A stretch of DNA of 64,000 nucleotides from a virus: positions 32,001 to 96,000 of IMG/VR virus record IMGVR_UViG_3300044977_000094, one strand, 5' to 3'. Below are positions 11,608 through 63,806 of this stretch, in pieces. Position 1 is the stretch's first letter, and the number at the start of each line of letters is the position of its first letter. The notes below the pieces were generated by a model. That model was not told the DNA's origin. It saw only the letters and a list, made by a program, of their open reading frames with translations, and searched no databases. The position numbers and the translations under genes are program-made.

Positions 11608-12870
11608 CTAGATGTAGGTGTCCGACCAGTAGAAAGTCGCTGTCGCGCCCGAGCCGGCCGTGCCGCCGAACTGGAGCTGGTTGTCGCCCGGGGCGATTTC
11701 CCACCAGGCCGATGAGACATCCGCCGGCCAGTACGTGCCGCCCGTGCTCGGGATCCCCGGGTACATCGACAGCGTCGTGGGGTTGATGAAGGCCTGCCGG
11801 TTGAGGAAGTCCACGACCATGGTGTCGCCAGTCCCCAGGCTCACCGTGCTCCACGAGACGGTGCTGCCGCTGGTCAAGTTGGACAGGGTTACGCCGCTGA
11901 CTGGGCCAGTGACGACCACGACTGATGGGGTCTCAAAGCTGCCGCCATTGATCGCCACGCTCGATCCTGGCGGCGGCGCTGCGGCGAGACTGAAGGGCAC
12001 GGTGAACGGGACGACCATGTCGCCGCCGACGCCCGCGGAGAGCAGCCCGATCTGGATCGAGCGCTGCACGTTGGCGTACTTGCGGGGGTCGGGTGCGACG
12101 AGGCCGATCGCGAAAGTGACATCACTCAAGGTCGGATACGACTCGGTGATCTTCCCGGAGCGGCGCACCCAGGCGTACTTCGACACCGGCTCGTCGTAGC
12201 GCAGCTGCGCCAAGTCGCTGATCGGCACGGCCTGCTGTAGGAGTGCCCGGGCGGTGTCCCGCAGGGCCTGGGTCGGGGCGGAGGCCGTGACGGTCAGCGT
12301 CATCGTCCGGGCCGCGAAGTACTGCGGCGACGCCCATGCGCCGTGGTCACCGGATCGGGCGATGACCCCGGCGCCCTGCACGTCCGGGCCATCCCAGCCC
12401 TCCAGCTTCTGCCACAGCCAGCAGATGCCGTTGCCGTCCACGGCGCCGAACTCGATGTCCAGGTCAGCCGCGCTGTAGATCAGGCCGCCGGTCCAGAACC
12501 CGGTGTCGCCGGCCGGGACCGGCGGCGTGTAGCCACCCGGGATGCCACTGACGTTGAAGTTCTCGACGCCGAGGAACTCATCCGAGCCGTAGGTGCAGGT
12601 CCAGTTCGCGGTGTACACACCGGACTTGGTCATCGGTGGGATGTTCCAGGTGAAGGCGTACTGGCCAGCAGCGATGCGCCATACCTGCCCCGGAACAGAC
12701 GAGCTCGCGCCCTGGTAGGTGAACGGGCCCGCGACGTCCGAGACCGAGCCAACGGGCCCCCCGTACGTGATGTCCAACTGCACAGCGGACGGATCCGTCA
12801 GGACACCGCTGACCTCGTCGTAGAAGTTCAGGTCCAGCACCCACGGCTGGCCGGCCATCGCGCCAGTCAT
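11608..12870 (-). CDS. distal tail (Dit)-like protein with an extra N-terminal beta domain
   Basis: First tail gene after the TMP; EGWD.PDV, APDPRKY, IAPGDN. Confidence 0.75.
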   Translation of the reverse strand: MTGAMAGQPWVLDLNFYDEVSGVLTDPSAVQLDITYGGPVGSVSDVAGPFTYQGASSSVPGQVWRIAAGQYAFTWNIPPMTKSGVYTANWTCTYGSDEFLGVENFNVSGIPGGYTPPVPAGDTGFWTGGLIYSAADLDIEFGAVDGNGICWLWQKLEGWDGPDVQGAGVIARSGDHGAWASPQYFAARTMTLTVTASAPTQALRDTARALLQQAVPISDLAQLRYDEPVSKYAWVRRSGKITESYPTLSDVTFAIGLVAPDPRKYANVQRSIQIGLLSAGVGGDMVVPFTVPFSLAAAPPPGSSVAINGGSFETPSVVVVTGPVSGVTLSNLTSGSTVSWSTVSLGTGDTMVVDFLNRQAFINPTTLSMYPGIPSTGGTYWPADVSSAWWEIAPGDNQLQFGGTAGSGATATFYWSDTYI

Positions 12871-29303: not shown

Positions 29304-29334
29304 GCCACCACCCCCGATCAGCTTGTGGTGACGC

Positions 29335-29754
29335 TCAGGTCAGCCGGATGCGGTGCTCGGCGGCCCAGGCGCGCCGGTGCCGGTCGGTGCAGAACAGGTA
29401 GCGCCAGGTGCCGTCTTCGCCCGCGATCTCGTACTCGTGCCGGTACCGTCCGGGCCAGCGGCAGTCCCCGTGCGCGCAGTCGAGCGGCCGCACTCCGCGC
29501 CGGCCGCAGATCCATCGGTGCACGCCCCAGACCAGCCGGACCAGCGGACGCCAGGGCCGCGGCTCCCGTTCGGGTCGTGTCATGGTGACGGAGGGCCTGT
29601 CGTGGCCGGTGCCGCAGCCGGGGCAGATCTCCAGGACTCCGGCGACGGGTGCCTGGCGGTCCCCGATATGCAGGGTCACCCGCACCCGCGACGGCAACCG
29701 GCACACCGGACACCACTGGTGCAGCTCGGGCTCCCCGGCGACCACGCACTTCAC
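29335..29754 (-). CDS. Cys-rich hypothetical protein
   Basis: CPVC, CPGC, CAHGDC. Confidence 0.5.
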   Translation of the reverse strand: MKCVVAGEPELHQWCPVCRLPSRVRVTLHIGDRQAPVAGVLEICPGCGTGHDRPSVTMTRPEREPRPWRPLVRLVWGVHRWICGRRGVRPLDCAHGDCRWPGRYRHEYEIAGEDGTWRYLFCTDRHRRAWAAEHRIRLT

Positions 29755-29764
29755 GGAACCCCCA

Positions 29765-31045
29765 TCACGCGGCGAGCGGGATCCGGTTGAACCACAGGCC
29801 CTGCGACGACTTGACCGCGTAGCGGCCGCCGTCCAGGGAGTGGTCGTCGGCCTTGACCGGCTTGTCGACACCCAGAAGTGCCGCCCGGTCGTCCCAGGAG
29901 TAGCCGCCGATCTCGTCGATCCAGCCCTGGCAGCCCCGCGCCGCCTTCAGCCGCTTGCGGGCCAGGAGCGAGGACACCAGGCGGATGCCGTCGAGGACGC
30001 TGTTGTCAGCATCCGCGACCGGCCAGCCGTCCTGGAAGCACTGGACCTTGAGGGACGCCGCGGACGGGTCGACGAACAGGTGCTGCACGGTGGGGCCGCG
30101 CAGGTGCGTTCCCGGGAACCGCACGTTGTTGATCCAGTCGCGGAGCTTCCCGGACAACTCGACGTCGGTGAGCTGCCGGTGCCGCTGGCGTGAGTCCCAC
30201 CGGAACTCGTCCACGAGGAACAGGCACGGCTCCTGCCCGCTGTCGCCGCCACCACGGTTGCTCATGCCCAGCAGCAGCGCCGCGGTCGGCGCGGTCGTGC
30301 CGTAGTCCAGGCCGATGCCAAGCCAGGTGTGGATGGGCGGGACGAGGTCGACGACGTGGACCGACGGATCCCACATGTCGTAGATCGCGCCCTCGGCGGC
30401 GCACCACTCGCCGAGGACCCGGCGCCGGTACCACAGGCCGACGTTCTCGGCCTTGACGGAGGCCTTGTACTCCTCGTCGAGGGACGGGTTGTCGTCGAGG
30501 AGGAAGTGCCAGGAGGCCAGGTCGAGTTCGTGGCCGCGCAGCAGGTAGTTCTTGCGCAGCCAGTGCGCCGGGTTGTCGGGGTTGGTGGTCGCGAACAGCT
30601 TTGCGCCGGGTACCGACATGCGGCCCAGGAGCTGTGAGAAGAACTCCTCGGACACCAGCGTCGCCTCGTCGACGTAGGCGCCGGCTGCGGTGAGACCGCG
30701 CAGCCGGGTCTCGGCCCGGGTGTCGTTCGCGCCGATGACCCACACGCGCCGGCCCAGGATGGTGCCGGAGGGCGCGCCGGGGGTGTAGCGGGTCTGGGTG
30801 GCGAGGTCCCCGAACACGGCGTAATCCTGGAGCGGGGAGAACACGTTCCGCATCGCGGTCTGCGACGTCTTCGCCACCACGACCAGCTCACCGCGCGGCG
30901 CGTTCGCCACGTAGATCAGCCAGCGGAGCAGTGAGGAGATCGTCTTTCCGGAGCGGATCGCGCCCGTCCAGATGTTGATCCGCGCGTCGGCCTCGGCCAC
31001 CGATCTGATCTGCTTCGGCGACAGGGGCAGGGCGTTGAGCTGCAC
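29765..31045 (-). CDS. terL: terminase large subunit
   Basis: GAIRSGKT Walker A, YVDE Walker B, TTNP, LDYG, DPSA, DDHSLD. Confidence 0.95.
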   Translation of the reverse strand: MQLNALPLSPKQIRSVAEADARINIWTGAIRSGKTISSLLRWLIYVANAPRGELVVVAKTSQTAMRNVFSPLQDYAVFGDLATQTRYTPGAPSGTILGRRVWVIGANDTRAETRLRGLTAAGAYVDEATLVSEEFFSQLLGRMSVPGAKLFATTNPDNPAHWLRKNYLLRGHELDLASWHFLLDDNPSLDEEYKASVKAENVGLWYRRRVLGEWCAAEGAIYDMWDPSVHVVDLVPPIHTWLGIGLDYGTTAPTAALLLGMSNRGGGDSGQEPCLFLVDEFRWDSRQRHRQLTDVELSGKLRDWINNVRFPGTHLRGPTVQHLFVDPSAASLKVQCFQDGWPVADADNSVLDGIRLVSSLLARKRLKAARGCQGWIDEIGGYSWDDRAALLGVDKPVKADDHSLDGGRYAVKSSQGLWFNRIPLAA

Positions 31046-31601: not shown

Positions 31602-34418
31602 CTATGAGAGTGCGGCCCAGAAGGCGTTGCTGGAGCCGGCGAGGGTGCCGTAGGTGCCGGGCATGGCGGTCGTCAGGCTGCCGGTGCTGGTGGCGTAGCG
31701 GCTGTTCGTGGCAGTCAGGCCGGTGTTGACGATGCTGAACCCGGAGACGGCCTTCGCGAAGGTCGGCAGCGTCGAGCCGTTCGCGAAGAAGGCGATGTAG
31801 TAGTCGCCTGCGGCGAGGTTGGTCTGCGTCGTGGTCAGCGCCATGACCTTGGTGCCGGTGCTGGTCCAGGCCGTGGACTGGTCTGCTGTGCCGGACAGCA
31901 GGGTGCCGCCGGAGGTGTAGAGCCCGGCGAAGCACTCGTTTGTGGTGAGGCTGACGCCGGTCACGGACTGGACGAACACGACGACGTTGGTGACGGTCGC
32001 CGCGGTGGGCAGGTGGACGCGGATCAGCTGGAGCTGGCCGGCGGTGGGGGCGGTGCCGGAGCTGTTGCAGGCGGTGGGCTTGTCGGACCAGGTCAGGTAG
32101 CCGTGGTCCGCGGGGGAGAAGTCGGCCCAGGGGTGGACATGGTCATAGGGGGCGGCGAGGGGCCCGGAGCCGGTGGCGGCGGGGGATGCGGGCCGCTTGG
32201 GCAGGTCGGTGGTGTCGATCGTGGCTTGGACTGTGCCGGTGGTGTTGGCCCAGCGGAGTACTTCGCCGACGGGCATGACGGGGATGCCGTGCGAGTTGAT
32301 CCCGGCCATGATCGACGCGAAGTCGGTGATGCTGATCTGAGTGTCGGCCGAGGGGGAGCTGACCACCTCATGGAACGCCAGGATGAGCCAACTGCCCGTG
32401 GCCTTGCACTGGTCGAGGTCGCCGCCGGTCTGGGTGATCAGGCTGGTCAGGTATTCCTGGCCGTCGCCGGTGTAGCTGGAGATGCTGGAGATCCTGCGCA
32501 CCCGCCACGCATCGGACGGGGGGTAGGTCTCCTTGGTCTTGTTGATCGTCGTCAGACCGAACCCGTACACCTGCTCCAGGATCAGCTCGGTGTTGACATT
32601 GTCCGTCGTCTGACCGTACTGCCCTTTCGGGTAGGCGACCAGGTCAGCGCCACGGAAGCCGTTCGCGACGGCGAACGCCTTCATGGAGGTGGCATCGGCC
32701 AGGAGCTGAGCGGCCGTGACGCCGGTGTACGTCTCACTGTGGACCGTGTCCGAGTAGGCGTGGCAGGCGATCTCCCAGCCGGAGTCCTTCTGGAGGTTCC
32801 GCAGGTCCGTCAGGGACAGGCGTCCGGTGGTGCCGATGAGGTCGGCGATCACGAAGCTGGTGGCGTTGTAGCCGTAGAGATCTAGGTATGGCTTGCCGGC
32901 GGTGAGGGCGTCTTCGTAGCAGTCGTCGAAGGTGATCGAGATGACGCCGTTCGGGAAGGTGGCCTGCCCGGACGCGACGAAGTCGACCATCTGGAGGTGC
33001 ACCGTGACCGCATTGGCGCTGCCGCCGCCGATGTCCGCGATCCGGAACCGCACCGCAGCCAGCCCAGTCGTGGCACCGCTGCCGATCTTCACGGCGGTGT
33101 GGAACGACAGGGACTGCGTAACCCAGTCGCCACTGGTGTAGTAGTTGGAGCCGGAGACTCCGGTCTGCATCGTCCAGTTCCACCCGTTGGTCCAGGTGGT
33201 GTCCGTGCACACGTCGATCTCGAAGGACGCCAGGTTGTTGATGTTCGTGACCTGCGCGGTCACCCGCGGGATCGCCGACGCCAGGCTGGCTGCGGTGATG
33301 CTGCCGTACACGTGGTAGGTGACCCCGTCGCCGGGAGTCGTCAGCGTTGCGCACTGGCTGCCCCGGGCGAAGACGCTGGTGTCGTTCGCGGTGTACGTGC
33401 CCGACCCGGAGACGTCCGAGACGAAGCCATGCCCGCTCTGGAACTCCGTGCCGATCGCCGTCGGCTGCACATACCGCGGCAGCCGCAGGGACGGCGGGTA
33501 CGGCACGCTGGTCGCCAGAGTCGCGATCGGCTGGTACAGCGACGCCGCTGACGCCTCGGCCGACGACAGGGCCGTCGCAGCCGCGCCCGCCGCGTCGTAG
33601 GCCGCGTTCGCTCGGCTGACCTCGGCGGTGATCTGCGTATTGGTGTAGGCCTCGGCGTTCGACTGCGCTGTCGCCGCTGCACCTGCGGCGTCGTAGGCGC
33701 TGTTCGCGCGGGACACCTCGGAGGCGATCTGCGCGGCCGTGTACGTCTCGGCGTTGCTCTGGGCGGTTGCGGCCGATCCGGCGGCGTCGAATGCGCTGCT
33801 GGCCTGAGTCGCCGCCGTACCTAGTCCGAGGTTGGTCCGGGCATTCGGCGCACTGGAGGCGCCGGTACCGCCCTGCGCCACCGGCAGCGGTGAGGCCAGG
33901 TGCGTGCCGGTGACCTGCGGGCCGGTTGCTGTGCCGCCGAGGTCCCCGTCGAGCTGGATGGCACCCTGGCTGCTGTTCGTCGCGGCGGGGATGGTGAAGC
34001 TGACGCTGCCGGTGAAGTCGTTGGTGCCCGTCCAGACGTTGTCGCCTGCGAGGGCCCCGAAGAGCGTGAGGTCGCCGGAGGGTGCGACGGGGCTGATGCT
34101 GGACAGGTCGACGGGGCTGTCGGCGCCGGGTAGCAGGATGCTGTAGGTGCGGCCGACCTGGGCGAGCTGGGTGCCGAGCTGTTCGACGACTTGGTAGGTC
34201 CAGCCGGTGGGGGAGACTCCGGCGGCGTCGGTCGCGAGGAGTTGGATGGTGAAGTCGCCGTTTCCGTCGAGCGTTGCCGTGACGGGGCCGCTCGGGATGA
34301 TGACGCTGTTGCTCGCGGACTGGAGTGTCACGCTGGGTGTGAAGGTGACGCTGCCGGTCTCGGGTTCCTCGTTGGCGGTCTCGTAGTGGCCGGTGAGGGT
34401 GACCATGGTCAGCGACAC
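31602..34418 (-). CDS. fibre-like protein with a NodB/CE4 polysaccharide deacetylase domain
   Basis: GAIQLDGDLGGTA and PVAQGGTGA..ARTNLGLG fibre motifs; ITFDD, WEIACHAYSDTVH, AYPKG, LAFH; GGAGG RBS. Confidence 0.8.
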   Translation of the reverse strand: MSLTMVTLTGHYETANEEPETGSVTFTPSVTLQSASNSVIIPSGPVTATLDGNGDFTIQLLATDAAGVSPTGWTYQVVEQLGTQLAQVGRTYSILLPGADSPVDLSSISPVAPSGDLTLFGALAGDNVWTGTNDFTGSVSFTIPAATNSSQGAIQLDGDLGGTATGPQVTGTHLASPLPVAQGGTGASSAPNARTNLGLGTAATQASSAFDAAGSAATAQSNAETYTAAQIASEVSRANSAYDAAGAAATAQSNAEAYTNTQITAEVSRANAAYDAAGAAATALSSAEASAASLYQPIATLATSVPYPPSLRLPRYVQPTAIGTEFQSGHGFVSDVSGSGTYTANDTSVFARGSQCATLTTPGDGVTYHVYGSITAASLASAIPRVTAQVTNINNLASFEIDVCTDTTWTNGWNWTMQTGVSGSNYYTSGDWVTQSLSFHTAVKIGSGATTGLAAVRFRIADIGGGSANAVTVHLQMVDFVASGQATFPNGVISITFDDCYEDALTAGKPYLDLYGYNATSFVIADLIGTTGRLSLTDLRNLQKDSGWEIACHAYSDTVHSETYTGVTAAQLLADATSMKAFAVANGFRGADLVAYPKGQYGQTTDNVNTELILEQVYGFGLTTINKTKETYPPSDAWRVRRISSISSYTGDGQEYLTSLITQTGGDLDQCKATGSWLILAFHEVVSSPSADTQISITDFASIMAGINSHGIPVMPVGEVLRWANTTGTVQATIDTTDLPKRPASPAATGSGPLAAPYDHVHPWADFSPADHGYLTWSDKPTACNSSGTAPTAGQLQLIRVHLPTAATVTNVVVFVQSVTGVSLTTNECFAGLYTSGGTLLSGTADQSTAWTSTGTKVMALTTTQTNLAAGDYYIAFFANGSTLPTFAKAVSGFSIVNTGLTATNSRYATSTGSLTTAMPGTYGTLAGSSNAFWAALS

Positions 34419-41668: not shown

Positions 41669-43933
41669 TCAAGGGCTGCCCTCGGTGACGGGCAGTCCGT
41701 ATTCGCCGCTGGCGCCCGGGTTGCGGGTGACAGTGCCGTCCTTGGTGAGGCCGCTGAGGGTGTTCTCGACGGTCTTGCGCGCGACGCCGGTCATCTGGGT
41801 GATCGCATCCAGGTGCAGGTAGCCGACCTCCAGGCCGATGGGGTCGCGGCGCTCATGGAGGACGGCGAGGATCTTCTCCTTCGCGGTCGGCTCCTTCGTC
41901 AGGGTCGTGCTCGGCTTGGCGGGCTTCCACTTCGAGGTGCCGTCCTCGTCCTCTTCCGCAGCTGGCCCGACGGGGGTCAAGGCGATGTTCTGGCGGTCGT
42001 CCCAGTCGGGGAAGTCGCCCGGAATGACGATCTTCTCGGGGTCGAACAGGCCGGCGGCGGATTCCAGGATCCAGGCGCGCATCATCTCCGCGCGCTCATC
42101 GGGGCCGACGACGTAGCCGACGCCAAAGGTGCGGCGCGGGTCGTCCTCGGCGACGGTGGCGTCGTAGATCAGGGCATCGTCGTCGCCCTTCCAGAACGCC
42201 GGGATCTTCGAGGGGTCGATGCCGTCGAAGGCTTCGGGCAAGTCCACGCGGTTTTTCTGCGCACTGTCGGAGCGCAGCAGAGCCAGGAAGCCGCCGTAGA
42301 AGAGGTTGTCGCGGATCGAGGTGTCGCCAGCCATCTTTTCGAGGTTCAGGATCTGGCCGCACAGGATCAGGCACATCCCCAGTGAGCGGGCCTGCTCGGC
42401 GATCGCCGCGACGATGAACCCGGCTTCGGCGCGGTATGGGCTCTTCTCGCCGAGGAGCTGTGCGAACTCGTCGAGGATGACGGCGATCCAGGGGCGGTCC
42501 GTGCTGGCGATGAAGTTCTTCTGCCGCATGGCCGCAGACTCCATGACGCGGTGCTGGAGTATCGCGTAGGCGACGCGCAGCGCCCCCAGGGCTTCCTCGG
42601 GGCCACAGCCAGCGTGGGCAGCCATATCTTCCACGTCGGGGTTCGAGGATCCCTTGGGGTCGGCGTAAATGAGCGCAAAGCGGTTGACGTGGTAGGCCAG
42701 AGCGAGGATTTGAAGGACGCCGCCCTTGCCGGAGCCGGTGACGCCGGCGACCAGACCGTGGCGACCGCCGCCCTTCTCGTCGAAGAGCTGGACGCGGGCG
42801 GGACGGCCGGAGATCCCGGTTCCGATGGCGACGAATCCGTTTTGGTTGGCGACCAGGGTGTCCGGGCCGGGCAGGGGCCGGCCCTCTTCCAGCGGTGAGC
42901 GGTCCATCATGCGCAGCTTGGCCTTGCGCGGGTTGTTGGTCGCGGTGACTGACACGAGCAGGGTGGTGGTGCGCAGGGCTCCGGCGATGCGGTAGGCGTC
43001 GGGCATGGTGATCGCGTCGGTGTCTTCGTCGGCGACGATCCACGCGGCGACGCCGCCGGTGGCCGGGTCGGGGATGGTGCCTTCGAGGTGGGTGCCGGGC
43101 ATGCAGCCGTTCTTGTGGCCGACGCGGCGCATCCACAGTGCGTCCAGGGCGCTGTACTGGGGCTCGTCGACTGCGGGGGCGACCATGTGGACCAGGATGC
43201 GGCGGGCACTGGTGTGCGGGCCCGCGGTGATGTGGACCTGCTCGACGGGGATGCGGTAGACGCCGGACACCGTCTCGGCGGTGACCGAGACGGGCCGGCC
43301 GGGGTCGGCTTCGATCGTGCCCTCCCATGCCTCGGGGCTGTGGCCGGTCAGGGTGAGGTGGTTGCCGGGGTGGGCGCCGTCCTCCCGGGAGATGTGGATG
43401 TGCCAGGGCATCAGCACGTCATCGCCAGGAGCCGGCGCCGCGGCCGGTGCGGGGTTGGCGGGTGCCTGGTAGGCGAGGGCCTGGGGGCGGTGCCCGCGCA
43501 GGACACGGCGCAGCGAGAACGTGACGTACCCGGTCGCGCCCCACCAGGCCAGGGAGACCAGGCCGGACAGCGACGGCAGTGCCATCCATCCGGCGACCAG
43601 GGAGTCGACGCCGGGCCAGCCGTGCATGGTCGCCGTGGCCGCTGCGGTGGCGGTGGCGATCACGGAGACCAGGAACGGCTCGCGATGGGCGCGCAGGATG
43701 TCACCGCCGGGCAGGGCGTCCATGGCGTCGTCGGGCAGCAGACGGGTGAAGTTCGCCCCGGCCATCAGGGCCGGCGCGACCAGGAGGACGCTGACGGTGC
43801 CCGCGGCCTGCCCGTCCAGCAGCGGCATGGTCAGAGCCGTCGCCAGTGGTGCGGCGGCCTGGGCGACGGCGAAGCGCTTCTCCGCACGCGGGTTCGGCGC
43901 ATGGGCAACTGCGGTGGTGTCGTTGGTGGTCAC
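41669..43933 (-). CDS. traB: FtsK/SpoIIIE-like conjugative DNA translocase
   Basis: N-terminal TMs, GVTGSGKG Walker A, ILDEF Walker B, ARSLG, C-terminal wHTH. Confidence 0.85.
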   Translation of the reverse strand: MTTNDTTAVAHAPNPRAEKRFAVAQAAAPLATALTMPLLDGQAAGTVSVLLVAPALMAGANFTRLLPDDAMDALPGGDILRAHREPFLVSVIATATAAATATMHGWPGVDSLVAGWMALPSLSGLVSLAWWGATGYVTFSLRRVLRGHRPQALAYQAPANPAPAAAPAPGDDVLMPWHIHISREDGAHPGNHLTLTGHSPEAWEGTIEADPGRPVSVTAETVSGVYRIPVEQVHITAGPHTSARRILVHMVAPAVDEPQYSALDALWMRRVGHKNGCMPGTHLEGTIPDPATGGVAAWIVADEDTDAITMPDAYRIAGALRTTTLLVSVTATNNPRKAKLRMMDRSPLEEGRPLPGPDTLVANQNGFVAIGTGISGRPARVQLFDEKGGGRHGLVAGVTGSGKGGVLQILALAYHVNRFALIYADPKGSSNPDVEDMAAHAGCGPEEALGALRVAYAILQHRVMESAAMRQKNFIASTDRPWIAVILDEFAQLLGEKSPYRAEAGFIVAAIAEQARSLGMCLILCGQILNLEKMAGDTSIRDNLFYGGFLALLRSDSAQKNRVDLPEAFDGIDPSKIPAFWKGDDDALIYDATVAEDDPRRTFGVGYVVGPDERAEMMRAWILESAAGLFDPEKIVIPGDFPDWDDRQNIALTPVGPAAEEDEDGTSKWKPAKPSTTLTKEPTAKEKILAVLHERRDPIGLEVGYLHLDAITQMTGVARKTVENTLSGLTKDGTVTRNPGASGEYGLPVTEGSP

Positions 43934-52971: not shown

Positions 52972-53877
52972 GTGAGCCTCGAAGCGATGGACTGGGTGTG
53001 GGATCACTCCCGCTCCAAAGGCGTCGGCCGCATGGTGATGCTGGCCCTCGCCGACAAGGCGCTGCCCTCGGACACGGAGTGCAAGGCGTACGGCTCGCTG
53101 ACCTTCCTCCAGAAGCGCGCCAACTGCACCCGAGAGGCGGTAACCGCCGCACTGTCGGTCTTGCTGGCGTTGGGCGAACTGGAGGTCGTCGAAGGCGAAA
53201 AGGGCCCGTACGGGGCCAGCGTGTACCGACTCCCTAAGGCCATTGGCCATGCCCGTCTCAGGTCGTTCGAACGCTCCAATCGGTCGGCTCACCCGACCGA
53301 TTCAAGTTCGACAAGCGGTCGGCTCAGCCGACCAGGGGTAGTCGGCTCACCCGACCAATCCGGAGCGGAATCGGTCGGCTCACCCGACCCCAACACCACC
53401 ACCCCACCAAGAACCACCACCTCCGCGCCTACCGACCCGCCTGCCCCACCCTCTCCATCCGGAGGAGGCGGAGGAGATCAACAACAGGAAGCCGAGGGCT
53501 TCCTCCAGTCGCTGCCCCCGCCGTGGACGGCAGGACCTGTGGACGCCCGCAAGCTCGCCCCACTGCTCCTGGAGCGCACCGAAGCGCAAGGCTGGGACCT
53601 CGACCCCGCCCTCGCCGCCGAGCTGACGAAGAACCCCGGTGGCATCGAGCGCTACGCCTCGGTCCTGCCGCGGCGAATCGCCAACCTCGTCAAGAAACCC
53701 ACCGGCCACAAACCCACCGGCCACCAGTCCCGCGCTTCGCCCGCCCTGCCGCCGTGGTGCGAGGACCCCGACTGCGACCGGGCCACCCGCTACCGAACCA
53801 CCGAAGACGACAACGGCTACCCCCTCGCCACGCCCTGCCGCGCCTGCCACCCCGACCACGCCAAGGAAGCAGCATGA
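52972..53877 (+). CDS. phage replication initiator
   Basis: AMDWVW..S...RMVMLALAD wHTH; internal iterons; precedes DnaB. Confidence 0.8.
   Translation: MSLEAMDWVWDHSRSKGVGRMVMLALADKALPSDTECKAYGSLTFLQKRANCTREAVTAALSVLLALGELEVVEGEKGPYGASVYRLPKAIGHARLRSFERSNRSAHPTDSSSTSGRLSRPGVVGSPDQSGAESVGSPDPNTTTPPRTTTSAPTDPPAPPSPSGGGGGDQQQEAEGFLQSLPPPWTAGPVDARKLAPLLLERTEAQGWDLDPALAAELTKNPGGIERYASVLPRRIANLVKKPTGHKPTGHQSRASPALPPWCEDPDCDRATRYRTTEDDNGYPLATPCRACHPDHAKEAA
53281..53389. repeat. four iterons GTCGGCTCA(C/G)CCGACC (putative ori)
   Basis: Cores at 53283, 53318, 53341, 53374. Confidence 0.8.
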
Positions 53878-55214
53878 CCACCGGCCCCGACGACTACCCC
53901 GACGAGGACCCGCGCCCCCGCGACATCCCCGCCGAGCAAGCCCTCCTCGGCAGCATGCTCCTCGGCGAACGCGCCATCGACGACGCCGCCGACACCCTCG
54001 CCGGCCCCGACGACTACTACCGCGAAGCCCACCAGCTCATCCACACCGCGATCCTCGAAGTCCACGGCCAAGCCGGAGCCCGAGCCGACCCCATCACCGT
54101 CGAGGCCCAGCTCCGCAAAAGCGGGGTCCTGGAGCGCTGCGGCGGCGCACCGTACCTGTTCCGCCTCGCCAACAGCGTCCCCGTCAGCGCGAACGCCGAC
54201 TGGTACGCCGGCATCGTCCGCGACACCGCCAAGCTCCGCCGGATCTACGAGGCCGCCACCCGCATCGCCAACCAGGCCCTGGCCCGCGAAGACCCCGACG
54301 ACGTCCTCGACGCCGCCGTATCCGCCTTCCAGGCACTGATCATCAACGCCCCTGCTGACGCGCCCAAGCTGTCCGTCGCCGACCGCTGGGACGACTTCGT
54401 CGACCAGCTCGAAGCCGGAGAAGACCCCAACGCCCTCGACACCCCCTGGAAAGACGTCAACGAGGTCACCAGCTTCAAGCCCGGCGACGTCATCGCCGTC
54501 GGCGCGGAGACCTCCGGCGGAAAGTCCCTCCTCGGCTTCAACTGCGCCGCGCACGTCGCCCTGCGCCGCAAGCGGCCCGTCCTGGTCGCGAGCATGGAGA
54601 TGGGAGGCACCGAGCTCCTCGCCCGCCTCACCGCGGCCGAAGCCGGCGTGGACCTGTCGCGGCTGGTGAACCGGCAGCTCCTCGAATCCGACTGGGAGCG
54701 CATTGCCCGTGTCGCCGAGCGCCTGCGCGGTGCCGACAACTTCGTCCTGGACGACTCGCCCGGCCTGTCCCTGTCGAAGATCCGCGCCCGGATCAGGTGG
54801 ATGACGTCCAAGGGCACACCCCCGGCGCTGGTCGTCGCGGACTACCTCCAGCTCATCACCCCCGAAGGCCCCGGCGGCCGGAACCGCACACAGGAAGTCG
54901 CGGACATCTCCCGCGGGTTGAAGCTCATGGCCATGGAGTTCAAGGTGCCCGTCCTGGCCCTGGCCCAGTTCAACCGCGGGCAGGTCGGGCGCAAGCCGCT
55001 GGTGTCGGACTTCAAGGACTCCTCGCAGATCGAGCAGGACTCGAACGTGATCCTGCTGATCTCCAAGGACATCCCCGACGACCCGTCGAACCCGGCGCCG
55101 GACAACGGGATCAGGCACGTTGAGGTGGCGAAGAACCGGAACGGGCCGCGGGGTCGCGAGGTGGACCTTCAGCAGCAGGGGCACTATGCGCGGCTGGTGT
55201 CGCTCGCCCGGTAG
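53874..55214 (+). CDS. dnaB: replicative DNA helicase
   Basis: AEQALLGSML, GGKS, SMEM, DYLQL, LAQFNR, IEQDS, AKNRNGP. Confidence 0.93.
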   Translation: MTTGPDDYPDEDPRPRDIPAEQALLGSMLLGERAIDDAADTLAGPDDYYREAHQLIHTAILEVHGQAGARADPITVEAQLRKSGVLERCGGAPYLFRLANSVPVSANADWYAGIVRDTAKLRRIYEAATRIANQALAREDPDDVLDAAVSAFQALIINAPADAPKLSVADRWDDFVDQLEAGEDPNALDTPWKDVNEVTSFKPGDVIAVGAETSGGKSLLGFNCAAHVALRRKRPVLVASMEMGGTELLARLTAAEAGVDLSRLVNRQLLESDWERIARVAERLRGADNFVLDDSPGLSLSKIRARIRWMTSKGTPPALVVADYLQLITPEGPGGRNRTQEVADISRGLKLMAMEFKVPVLALAQFNRGQVGRKPLVSDFKDSSQIEQDSNVILLISKDIPDDPSNPAPDNGIRHVEVAKNRNGPRGREVDLQQQGHYARLVSLAR

Positions 55215-55522: not shown

Positions 55523-55819
55523 ATGACCACCACCGGCCAGCACCTGGACGGGCTCACCATCGCCTGCCAGCAACTCATCGAGACCGTCGGCGATCTACGC
55601 GTTCGCGGTCACATCAAGGAGCACCCGGAGTTCATCGAGCACGGCGCCAACCTGGTCGAGGTCATGCTCGTTGAGGTCCGTGAGGCGGTGGCTCGGGAGC
55701 GGGCCGCTATGGACTTCCCGCCGCTGCCCGACGGGGAAGCAGTACGGAGTCACCGGAGCCAGGTGGCCGGATTCGTGAAGCACCGCTGCAACTGCGGCTG
55801 GTGCCGGAACGAGTCCTGA
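55523..55819 (+). CDS. hypothetical protein
   Basis: AAGGAG RBS; HRCNCGWC. Confidence 0.6.
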   Translation: MTTTGQHLDGLTIACQQLIETVGDLRVRGHIKEHPEFIEHGANLVEVMLVEVREAVARERAAMDFPPLPDGEAVRSHRSQVAGFVKHRCNCGWCRNES

Positions 55820-59162: not shown

Positions 59163-59609
59163 ATGAGCCCGACCGACGCTCTCGTCCAGCATGTCCGAAT
59201 GGCCGTCGCCCTGGGGCTCTCCGACCGGCACCAGGAAGCCTGGGCGGAGATCGAGACCGCTGTCGCCCCTGATCCGCTGGCCATGTACGCCACCATCTCT
59301 GCCCTTGCTGAAGTCGCCGTCGCCGACCACGCCGATCGGGACTCTGGCGGGGTGTTCGGCCTGACTGTGCAGTACCAGGGCCGTGAGGCCGACATCAACG
59401 GGGCCCCGGCGGCACAGCGGCTCGCGATGCAGTTCATGGCCGCACAGGCCAACCGGGACCTCGACATGACCCGGGCCCTGTTCGTGGCCGCGATGAACAC
59501 GGACCCCGCTTCGGTAGCCGGCGCGACTCTGATCGTCTACGAGGCCGCGCTGAAGACCAGCCGCGAGCGCATCAACCGGGGCAAGGAGGTTCCCGGTGCT
59601 GACGCCTGA
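59163..59609 (+). CDS. hypothetical protein
   Basis: ORF after a relatively AT-rich spacer. Confidence 0.6.
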   Translation: MSPTDALVQHVRMAVALGLSDRHQEAWAEIETAVAPDPLAMYATISALAEVAVADHADRDSGGVFGLTVQYQGREADINGAPAAQRLAMQFMAAQANRDLDMTRALFVAAMNTDPASVAGATLIVYEAALKTSRERINRGKEVPGADA

Positions 59610-59982
59610 CGCCGAGCTGGATCGGCTCCGCACTGAGAACGCCCTCCTCCGCACCCAACTCACTGCCCAGGCCGTCATCCCCGAGCTCCCGGCCGAGTAC
59701 GACGGCGAGGCGATCACCTGGCGGCCTTGGGAAGCGGCACCGGTCATCAACTGCTACCGGCATGCCGACTTCAACACCTGCACTCAGTGCGGCCATCCCG
59801 GGCCCTCCGTGATGGCATTCGGGTACGCGGGTCCGAAGAAGCCGCTGCTGAAGTACCAGGCTCACCGCTGCCCGTCGTGCCAGGAGACCACGGTGTACCG
59901 GCGCGACCGTGATTGGCGTGGCCTTGACCTCGTGCAGATCGCCTACCACCCGCCGCGCACCACCGCCCTCACTATCACCTGA
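59596..59982 (+). CDS. Zn-ribbon protein
   Basis: CTQC, CPSC. Confidence 0.6.
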   Translation: MLTPDAELDRLRTENALLRTQLTAQAVIPELPAEYDGEAITWRPWEAAPVINCYRHADFNTCTQCGHPGPSVMAFGYAGPKKPLLKYQAHRCPSCQETTVYRRDRDWRGLDLVQIAYHPPRTTALTIT

Positions 59983-59994
59983 CCTGGAGTCCTG

Positions 59995-60159
59995 ATGCCC
60001 GTCACCGACCCCCGCCCCACCCCGCCGGCGTGCCCGCGTGTCCCGCTCGCCCAAGCAGCCCGCGCCGCCGAGACCGCTGCGCCGTCGGTCCTGGACCGGA
60101 TCCTGGCCCCGGGCGACAAGCAGCGGGTTGAGGTTGCAGCGTTCCAGTCGTCCATCTGA
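59995..60159 (+). CDS. FxSxx-COOH RiPP precursor-like peptide (absent from the ORF track)
   Basis: MPVTDPRPTPPACPRVPLAQAARAAETAAPSVLDRILAPGDKQRVEVAAFQSSI*; GGAG RBS. Confidence 0.75.
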   Translation: MPVTDPRPTPPACPRVPLAQAARAAETAAPSVLDRILAPGDKQRVEVAAFQSSI

Positions 60160-60184: not shown

Positions 60185-60781
60185 ATGACCGCGATCTTCT
60201 ACGACACCGAGTTCATCGACACCGGCACCACCATCGACCTGATCTCCATCGGCATGGTCACCGAGAACGGCGACGAGTACTACGCCATCATCGACGACCA
60301 CGAGGTGATCACCCGGGCGATGCGCCACGACTGGCTGCGGAAGAACGTCGTGCCGTCGCTGCCGATCACCGATGCCCACCAAGACACGGAAACGACCGTG
60401 TGGTTCGCCTGCCCGACACCGGAAGCCGCACCTGCCAACTGCTGGTTCTGGAACGAGGACCATCCGGACTACCGGCATGTGAAGCCCCGCGAGCAGATCG
60501 CCAAGGAGGTCCGGCAGTTCATCGCCGCAGCCCCGGACCCGCACCTGTGGGCCTGGTATGCCGCGTACGATCACGTCGCCCTGGCCCAACTGTTCGGCAC
60601 GATGATGCAGCTGCCTGTCGGTATCCCGATGTGGACAGCGGATCTGCGGCAGGAAGTCGAGCGGCTGGGCAACCCGCAGTTGCCGGAGCAGCCTGCGGGC
60701 GAGCACAACGCACTGGAGGATGCGAGGCACAACCTCGTCCGGTGGGCGCACCTGAAGTACTTCGAGGTGCCTGGTGTCTGA
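60185..60781 (+). CDS. DEDD 3'-5' exoribonuclease, RNase AS/Rv2179c-like
   Basis: FYDTEF, LISIGMV, WAWYAAYDHV, HNALEDARHN. Confidence 0.88.
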   Translation: MTAIFYDTEFIDTGTTIDLISIGMVTENGDEYYAIIDDHEVITRAMRHDWLRKNVVPSLPITDAHQDTETTVWFACPTPEAAPANCWFWNEDHPDYRHVKPREQIAKEVRQFIAAAPDPHLWAWYAAYDHVALAQLFGTMMQLPVGIPMWTADLRQEVERLGNPQLPEQPAGEHNALEDARHNLVRWAHLKYFEVPGV

Positions 60782-63090: not shown

Positions 63091-63258
63091 GTGACCGATG
63101 ACGAGACCGCCTTCCGCGCGTGCATGGAGCTCGACTTCAAGGACTGCGACCCGGTCGCGACCTGCCACTGCGGAGCGCGCTGCTTCGGCGACTCGATCAA
63201 CGACGCGCTGATCGCCTGGGGCAAGCACCTCACCACCGCCCACCGGGGGGAATGGTGA
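63091..63258 (+). CDS. small Cys/His protein
   Basis: CHCG...WGKH; coupled. Confidence 0.45.
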   Translation: MTDDETAFRACMELDFKDCDPVATCHCGARCFGDSINDALIAWGKHLTTAHRGEW

Positions 63259-63806
63259 CCGACTTCCCCTTGATCCCGCGTACTCCGGCGTCCAAGCTCC
63301 GCTACATCCTGGAGCAGCTCGCGGGCGTGCACGCGCAGGACTCCGCTGGGCAGACCCGGCTGATCGGCGCGCAGATGGTGCTGGAGCAGCTGGCGGAGGA
63401 ACTGGAGGCCGCGCCCGAGTTCCCGCTGCCGATCCACCCGGACGGCACCCACCACTACGTCAGCACCAGCTGCGCCTGCGTCGGCGACAACCTCATGGCC
63501 GACCGCCGGACCGGCCACGAGTACTGCCAGGGCATGACCGGCTACCAAGGAGCCAAGCGCGGCGGGCGCGCGAAATGCTGCGGGGCACCGTGCCAATGCG
63601 CCTGCCACCAGGACGATACGCCGGCTGGTGTTGCCGGGGCCGCAGCGGGCGCAGAGCAGCAGGGAGCTCCCTGGGTCGTGAACCACTGCTTCGAGGGCGA
63701 GCCGGGCAGCCCCTGCACGGCGGGCCTTGCGGGGACGGTCTGCGGCGAGCCGGACGAGCGGCATGCTCTGGTCGAGGACGAGACGGCAGGCGGTGAGCAC
63801 CGATGA
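63255..63806 (+). CDS. Cys/His-rich hypothetical protein
   Basis: HHYVSTSC, HEYCQ, KCCGAPCQCACH. Confidence 0.6.
   Translation: MTDFPLIPRTPASKLRYILEQLAGVHAQDSAGQTRLIGAQMVLEQLAEELEAAPEFPLPIHPDGTHHYVSTSCACVGDNLMADRRTGHEYCQGMTGYQGAKRGGRAKCCGAPCQCACHQDDTPAGVAGAAAGAEQQGAPWVVNHCFEGEPGSPCTAGLAGTVCGEPDERHALVEDETAGGEHR

Follow-up and report, generated by a model that had tools for sequence, protein, structure and literature searches.

An orphan FxsA-like RiPP precursor gene in the early region of a phage and its relatives in Streptacidiphilus

The peptide gene, its neighbours and the virus record

The DNA analysed here (the window, 64,000 nucleotides) corresponds to positions 32001–96000 of a 175,260-bp IMG/VR virus record (IMGVR_UViG_3300044977_000094). 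Window positions 59995–60159 (plus strand, stop codon included) are occupied by an fxsA-like gene for a 54-aa FxSxx-COOH precursor, delimited by its open reading frame, GC3, TIGR04268 match and homologues; it is a real, conserved gene. The frame opens with ATG, stops with TGA and yields the C-terminus RVEVAAFQSSI, and its start is unambiguous because the stop-to-stop frame spans just 58 aa. A GGAG ribosome-binding site, read from the sequence, lies 5 nt before the ATG (59986–59989, plus strand), and the same arrangement is repeated at the exonuclease gene that follows. The gene is separated from the upstream stop codon by 12 nt and from the downstream gene by 25 nt, and its GC content at the three codon positions (0.76/0.62/0.855) resembles that of the neighbouring genes.

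The upstream neighbour (59596–59982, plus strand) encodes a 128-aa Cys-rich, zinc-ribbon-like protein with weak zinc-ribbon Pfam matches and a match to phrog_9156, a group with no assigned function; in other phages this gene is not kept beside the peptide. The downstream neighbour (60185–60781, plus strand) encodes an Rv2179c/RNase AS-like 3'-5' exonuclease (PF16473, E 1.7e-16; NF033638, 165 bits), which has DNA-level matches in exonuclease genes of Gordonia and Mycobacterium phages and is called "DnaQ-like" in actinophage annotation. About 5 kb upstream of the peptide gene, a DnaB-like replicative helicase is encoded at 53523–55214 (plus strand; phrog_19, E 4.3e-95), the single DnaB copy found in the record. 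The peptide gene sits in a rightward, tightly packed early/replication arm, co-oriented with the DnaB and exonuclease genes. A promoter and terminator scan of the 52–64 kb region of the window gave no signal above shuffled expectation. An earlier note on this DNA, made from the letters alone, had described a 54-aa ORF with a ribosome-binding site, filling the gap between two genes and placed among phage early genes; the GGAG, the short gaps on both sides and the DnaB and exonuclease context bear out both points.

The record encodes a tape measure protein, a major head protein, a portal, a large terminase and a tail fibre in addition to the DnaB helicase. It is composed of two collinear ~88-kb phage genomes, 70–90% identical at the nucleotide level and joined head to tail, with genome positions 2208–73313 corresponding to 90073–163703 and a junction near window position 55,800; the record may be an assembly join or chimera rather than a real molecule. 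One constituent genome carries a tyrosine integrase (genome positions 29312–30550) and the other a serine recombinase (120607–122076). The peptide gene is present in the second genome only. The profile of alignment A1, our alignment of the peptide and its homologues, scores 100 bits at this gene as its sole match in the whole record and finds none in the sister genome, which rules out a second copy there. Searches of the entire 175,260-bp record with TIGR04269 (FxsB) and PF04055 (radical SAM) returned no match. The orphan status that the earlier note had claimed for the window, where it saw no maturase, extends by these searches to the whole record, and a cognate fxsB just outside the window is ruled out. 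Between the structural and early regions, an FtsK/SpoIIIE-like protein of 754 aa is encoded at window positions 41672–43933 (minus strand; phrog_1358); it resembles the DNA translocases of actinomycete conjugative plasmids.

Homology to FxsA precursors and conservation of leader and core

FxsA is the precursor of the actinobacterial Fxs "triceptide", a three-residue cyclophane formed when FxsB cross-links the Phe ring to the residue two positions on. An F-x-S-x-x end is found in 1 of the 2,767 frames of at least 30 aa in the virus record, and chance could yield a few such ends by a rough residue-frequency estimate; the ending alone is therefore not significant, and the case for the peptide must stand on homology, that is, on an HMM match and homologues. 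The best NCBIfam match of the window peptide is TIGR04268, the FxSxx-COOH cyclophane RiPP peptide family (E 4.6e-4), with an alignment that covers profile positions 5–44 of 44 and ends exactly at the C-terminus of the peptide. The family-model search that had been suggested as a check on the peptide thus returns the expected family, but with 20.4 bits against a curated cut-off of 28 bits. The second match, the SjiA model NF040585, reaches 17.3 bits and is also below its cut-off (75 bits), while Pfam and PHROGs contain no family for the peptide.

A phmmer search of 1.8 billion representative proteins retrieved ten relatives with E-values down to 5.8e-11. Of these, nine are peptides whose alignment extends to the C-terminus, eight of them ending in F-[QN]-S-S-I, and a word-index search supplied three further close relatives. 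The closest bacterial relatives, 64–70% identical to the window peptide, are encoded directly upstream of FxsB in Streptacidiphilus. In Streptacidiphilus sp. 4-A2, 43 nt separate the stop codon of the homologue P0006 (67% identity, phmmer E 1.9e-9) from an FxsB gene downstream of it (TIGR04269, 500 bits; cut-off 370), and the locus continues after FxsB with an AAC(3)-like acetyltransferase, the TIR-like FxsC, a KGGVGR ParA-like ATPase and FxSxx_TPR. P0006, though FxsB-adjacent, has no TIGR04268 match at E<1, indicating that the curated cut-off misses the Streptacidiphilus subfamily. Two metagenome relatives (L069 and L073), 66–70% identical to the window peptide, have FxsB just downstream, at ~800 bits. 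The Fxs locus of sp. 4-A2 (G001; L002:10220–19721) reads broken, with FxsB profile positions 1–35 and 41–361 in different frames and with FxsC and the TPR protein each split in two; this could reflect assembly indels or a decaying locus.

By these alignments, the window peptide is a true FxsA homologue, a FxSxx-COOH cyclophane RiPP precursor. The FxsA-type identity put forward in the earlier note holds, leader and core both being homologous to those of FxsB-adjacent peptides. It shares with FxsA and TIGR04268 its size, the leader motifs RVPL...S[IV]LDR[IV]L and the C-terminal VEVA[AS]F-Q-S-S-I. It differs in being phage-encoded, with no FxsB, HExxH hydroxylase, FxsC or FxsT in the 175-kb record, and in its N-terminal 14 residues, which bear no relation to the "MN.AAP..." start of the bacterial peptides. 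A fortuitous small ORF, or a small protein of other ancestry whose F-x-S-x-x end is a coincidence, would account for a five-residue motif no rarer than expected and for a family HMM score under the cut-off, but it is ruled out by relatives at E-values that low in a library of 1.8 billion proteins, by a match ending exactly at the C-terminus, and by a whole leader and core that align to FxsB-adjacent peptides.

Conservation in alignment A1 delimits a putative recognition leader segment at residues 15–37 (RVPLAQAA...SVLDRIL; window 60037–60105, plus strand). The core comprises residues 44–54 (RVEVAAFQSSI; 60124–60156, plus strand), of which F-Q-S-S-I occupies 60142–60156. The RVPLA and LDRIL motifs previously read as leader-like are present, and their key residues R15, L18, L33, R35 and L37 are invariant across 13 homologues, as is A22 in alignment A1; the invariant leader residues are common to FxsB-adjacent bacterial FxsA. 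In the core, V47, A48, S52 and S53 are invariant and F50 and Q51 are at least 90% conserved in the same alignment, so that the terminal motif, whose conservation had been singled out as a check, is kept among the homologues. The N-terminal 14 residues vary freely, with leader motifs and core fixed.

At the codon level, pN/pS over 40 codons is uninformative because synonymous sites are saturated, and codon columns were compared instead. Among seven close homologues aligned by codon, 10 amino-acid columns of the last 25 do not vary, and synonymous variation is seen in 9 of these 10, including TCN/AGY switches at both conserved serines. By this comparison, the core of the window peptide lineage is under purifying selection, the pattern expected of a functional RiPP precursor. 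One homologue, P0008, ends in ...VEVAASQSSV, with Phe replaced by Ser (TTC to TCC); the same protein is encoded in contigs of two different metagenome samples, each <1 kb (L012:449–616 and L013:427–594). Having lost the aromatic residue, P0008 would not be cross-linkable, and it could be a dead-core decoy form.

Orphan copies in other phages and Fxs loci in Streptacidiphilus

The window phage is not alone in carrying an orphan precursor. Orphan copies occupy the same early-region slot in three phage contigs closely related to it (L001, L070 and L071, of which L071 comes from a 121-kb contig), and more distant phage-like contigs (L004/L005 and L011) have orphan copies with other neighbours. A divergent 42-aa orphan peptide ending in ...PVAAFQSSI was found, again with different neighbours, by an exact degenerate DNA pattern in IMG/VR (L010:4223–4351, from IMGVR_UViG_3300031616_000058); its 10.7-kb contig is viral, unrelated and without FxsB, the peptide is at most 48% identical to any Streptacidiphilus FxsA, and the contig probably belongs to a phage that infects another actinomycete. 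An FxsB HMM derived from 20 Streptacidiphilus enzymes has no match in the L001, L004/L005, L010, L011, L070 and L071 loci, a check that covers the peptide loci rather than whole contigs for L001, L004 and L011; with ~800 bits, the same HMM does detect an enzyme immediately behind the bacterial-type peptides of L069 and L073. An IMG/VR scan with alignment A1 produced 14 pattern matches, none upheld by tblastn, and tblastn of INPHARED cultured phages with the window, S. carbonis prophage and L010 peptides found nothing meaningful; the exonuclease gene beside the peptide is the only part of this locus with a DNA-level match to known actinophages. The survey of actinophages proposed with the earlier note therefore turned up orphan copies in phage contigs and in a prophage of S. 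carbonis, described below, but none among the cultured actinophages of INPHARED.

A Cys-rich protein with the conserved motif ...STGC.C.GD...GRTGHEYCQG.TG...CK.C.APC.C.CHQ and no family match is encoded at window 63120–63806, L004:7753–8133 and L011:3016–3291; in L004 and L011 its gene directly follows that of the peptide, and in the window it comes ~3 kb further on.

FxsB is above the cut-off in 23 of 23 Streptacidiphilus genomes searched, with peptide-profile matches directly upstream of it, and several genomes have two or three FxsB copies. S. carbonis NBRC 100919 (G005) carries a complete FxsA-FxsBH-AAC(3)-like-FxsC-FxsT locus (FxsBH 568 bits, FxsC 221+144 bits, FxsT 1045 bits). On another contig, the same strain has a relative of the window phage integrated as a prophage (portal 57% and DnaB 82% amino-acid identity), with homology extending over ~4–76 kb of the contig and followed by host-like DNA. 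At 11899–12114 of contig C124, this prophage encodes an orphan F-x-S-x-x peptide with 89% identity to the FxsA of its host over 44 residues, compared with a median identity of 41% among FxsA peptides across Streptacidiphilus. Fxs modules of S. carbonis also occur in tandem (L022 and L043, the latter being contig C113, 40000–59999): the FxsA/FxsBH pair has an FxsT gene on either side (1312 and 1308 aa), and at a distance of ~16 kb this contig carries another FxsA, different from the first.

In a tree of the FxsA peptides, which rests on 44 columns only and leaves deeper forks unresolved, the S. carbonis prophage peptide and the host FxsA form a clade (support 96/82). The window peptide falls in a separate clade together with its phage relatives and the bacterial peptides of sp. 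4-A2, L069 and L073. The L071 phage peptide is 77% identical to the bacterial L073 peptide from the same metagenome series. The closeness of the S. carbonis pair and of L071 to L073 argues that at least two FxsA lineages have entered these phages, each near a host allele. The window virus probably infects an acid-soil actinomycete, Streptacidiphilus, an assignment based only on peptide similarity and the related prophage. Following the earlier suggestion to look for fxsB and fxsC in the host, we find that the genus so inferred carries fxsB, fxsC and fxsT. The S. carbonis lysogen allows a direct comparison of phage and host FxsA alleles.

Possible roles of the phage-encoded peptide

FxsAB adjoins a TIR plus ParA/STAND-TPR module, which has been predicted to serve multicellular actinomycetes as an abortive-infection or "apoptosis" system (Kaur et al. 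2020, PMC7159879; bioRxiv 10.64898/2026.10.19.760177). These two sources call the system uncharacterised and model the peptide as a toxin, an alarm signal or an antiviral molecule; that Fxs has an immune role is a published prediction. The window peptide belongs to the peptide arm of this system, which the likely host genus possesses in full. The published loci, as far as the available text of the same sources goes, are host-encoded only, with no mention of a phage-borne copy (PMC7159879; bioRxiv 10.64898/2026.10.19.760177). Our literature search found no paper describing phage-borne orphan FxsA genes. PADLOC has no model for Fxs proteins, save a generic radical SAM/viperin match. An ADP-ribosylated triceptide is the product of a Mucilaginibacter cluster, not of Fxs, and illustrates that NAD+-using enzymes can tailor triceptides (PMC12912966).

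We propose, with a probability of roughly one half, that the phage gene encodes an FxsA precursor of host type, that the host FxsBH matures it, and that its product manipulates the predicted Fxs immune module. The tightly packed rightward operon shared with replication and early genes suggests that the peptide would be made early in infection. The host FxsBH combines a radical SAM/SPASM cyclophane synthase and an aKG-HExxH hydroxylase in one fusion protein; it would recognise the phage peptide by its conserved leader and convert the core to the product that the host peptide also yields. The modified peptide would then act on the host FxsC (TIR) and FxsT, a ParA-like ATPase with TPR repeats. 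Since leader and core are both kept, the window peptide is most likely a competent substrate of the host FxsBH. Host-matched sequences fit either of the roles raised in the earlier note, a borrowed maturase or a jamming of an Fxs-linked immune system. Purifying selection on the core favours a borrowed maturase with an authentic product over a pure jam.

A predicted complex of the window peptide with the Streptacidiphilus FxsB domain scores 0.51, the best of 3 controls reaching 0.15, with runs that agree in at least 52% of contacts and a partner pLDDT of at least 41. The score mark that we used is reached by 58 of 80 solved complexes and 2 of 110 mismatched pairs, and scores that reach it without exceeding 0.60 comprise just 7 of the 80 solved complexes and both of the mismatches. 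The peptide being a close relative of true substrates, such a score shows likeness rather than binding, and the prediction lends weak support to a candidate pairing.

For the step after maturation we prefer an antidote-like mechanism, in which the TPR sensor would be kept quiet by the modified peptide as its ligand, while the phage copy would maintain the peptide supply once host expression shuts down. This polarity is favoured because a phage should not amplify an anti-phage signal. The opposing consideration is that, if the peptide is antiviral or an alarm as in the published models, a phage making more of it would harm itself, and an "off" polarity would be a new proposal of ours. Taken to its full extent, the antidote reading holds that the Fxs cyclophane peptide is a "cell is healthy" ligand silencing a TIR/ParA-TPR suicide module, and that Streptacidiphilus phages repeatedly capture the host's precursor allele as an antidote; we put this forward tentatively, as a possibility that is more doubtful than not.

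Phage-encoded antitoxin mimics that counter abortive infection are exemplified by T4 Dmd and the pseudo-ToxI repeats of phage phiTE. The proposed likeness is that the phage brings a copy or mimic of a host component restraining a suicide module. However, Dmd (a protein) and pseudo-ToxI (an RNA) act directly, whereas the RiPP precursor in the window would first need the host maturase, and the analogy presumes an inhibitory Fxs peptide, an inhibition that is putative here. The arbitrium peptide AimP is likewise a small phage-encoded precursor with host processing and a TPR-type receptor, but AimP is secreted, lacks radical-SAM modification and is paired with a phage receptor of its own, AimR (PMC12360287); no receptor gene lies beside the window peptide.

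Among the alternatives, lysogenic conversion or signalling fares best, although we consider it unlikely. Here the extra precursor of a temperate phage would raise the Fxs peptide output of the host, as an antiviral molecule or a diffusible alarm, so that lysogens are protected from other phages, or the peptide would be a cell-to-cell cue for phage decisions. The lineage is indeed temperate, with a tyrosine integrase and a serine recombinase in the record and an integrated prophage with an orphan copy in S. carbonis; the intact, host-identical core fits an authentic product; and the published models include an antiviral molecule or alarm (bioRxiv 10.64898/2026.10.19.760177). What tells against it is the location of the gene, in the replication/early-lytic arm with the DnaB and exonuclease genes instead of beside an integrase or repressor, and the fact that neither a receptor nor an exporter gene is seen adjoining the peptide.

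Somewhat less probable still is an enzyme decoy, whose leader would bind FxsBH, compete with the host FxsA and block production of the host signal. A conserved leader is what a decoy would require, and the natural variant without the aromatic residue (P0008, ...VAASQSSV), from two independent samples, is in keeping with one. Yet the core of the window lineage, including F50 and both serines, is conserved with synonymous changes, which a pure leader decoy would not need, and FxsBH should convert an intact core to product and not be blocked by it.

It is improbable that the gene is a neutral passenger, a recently captured fragment of host DNA with no role in the phage. Phage early regions are mosaic and do acquire host DNA, and the second, related genome of the same record is without the gene. 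The gene is nevertheless kept in at least 7 distinct phage or prophage sequences with different neighbours, each copy comes with a ribosome-binding site of its own and lacks host DNA on its flanks, purifying selection acts on the protein, and at least two FxsA lineages are represented.

Fxs is widespread in filamentous actinomycetes and has twice been predicted to be an immune or programmed-death system. A precursor-only phage lineage matched to the host allele is natural evidence placing the peptide at the centre of a phage–host conflict, and the phage fxsA-like gene offers a direct handle on Fxs, with one small gene and one mass-spectrometry read-out. If the phage copy boosts Fxs, it would represent a new kind of lysogenic conversion. 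If it silences Fxs, the polarity of Fxs signalling would be settled and the peptide would stand for a new class of counter-defence, in which a RiPP mimic borrows its maturase. Should the "cell is healthy" antidote prove true, the phage gene would mark the first case of a RiPP precursor that serves as an anti-defence factor and depends on a host maturase, and it would provide the first functional assignment for the long-uncharacterised Fxs system.
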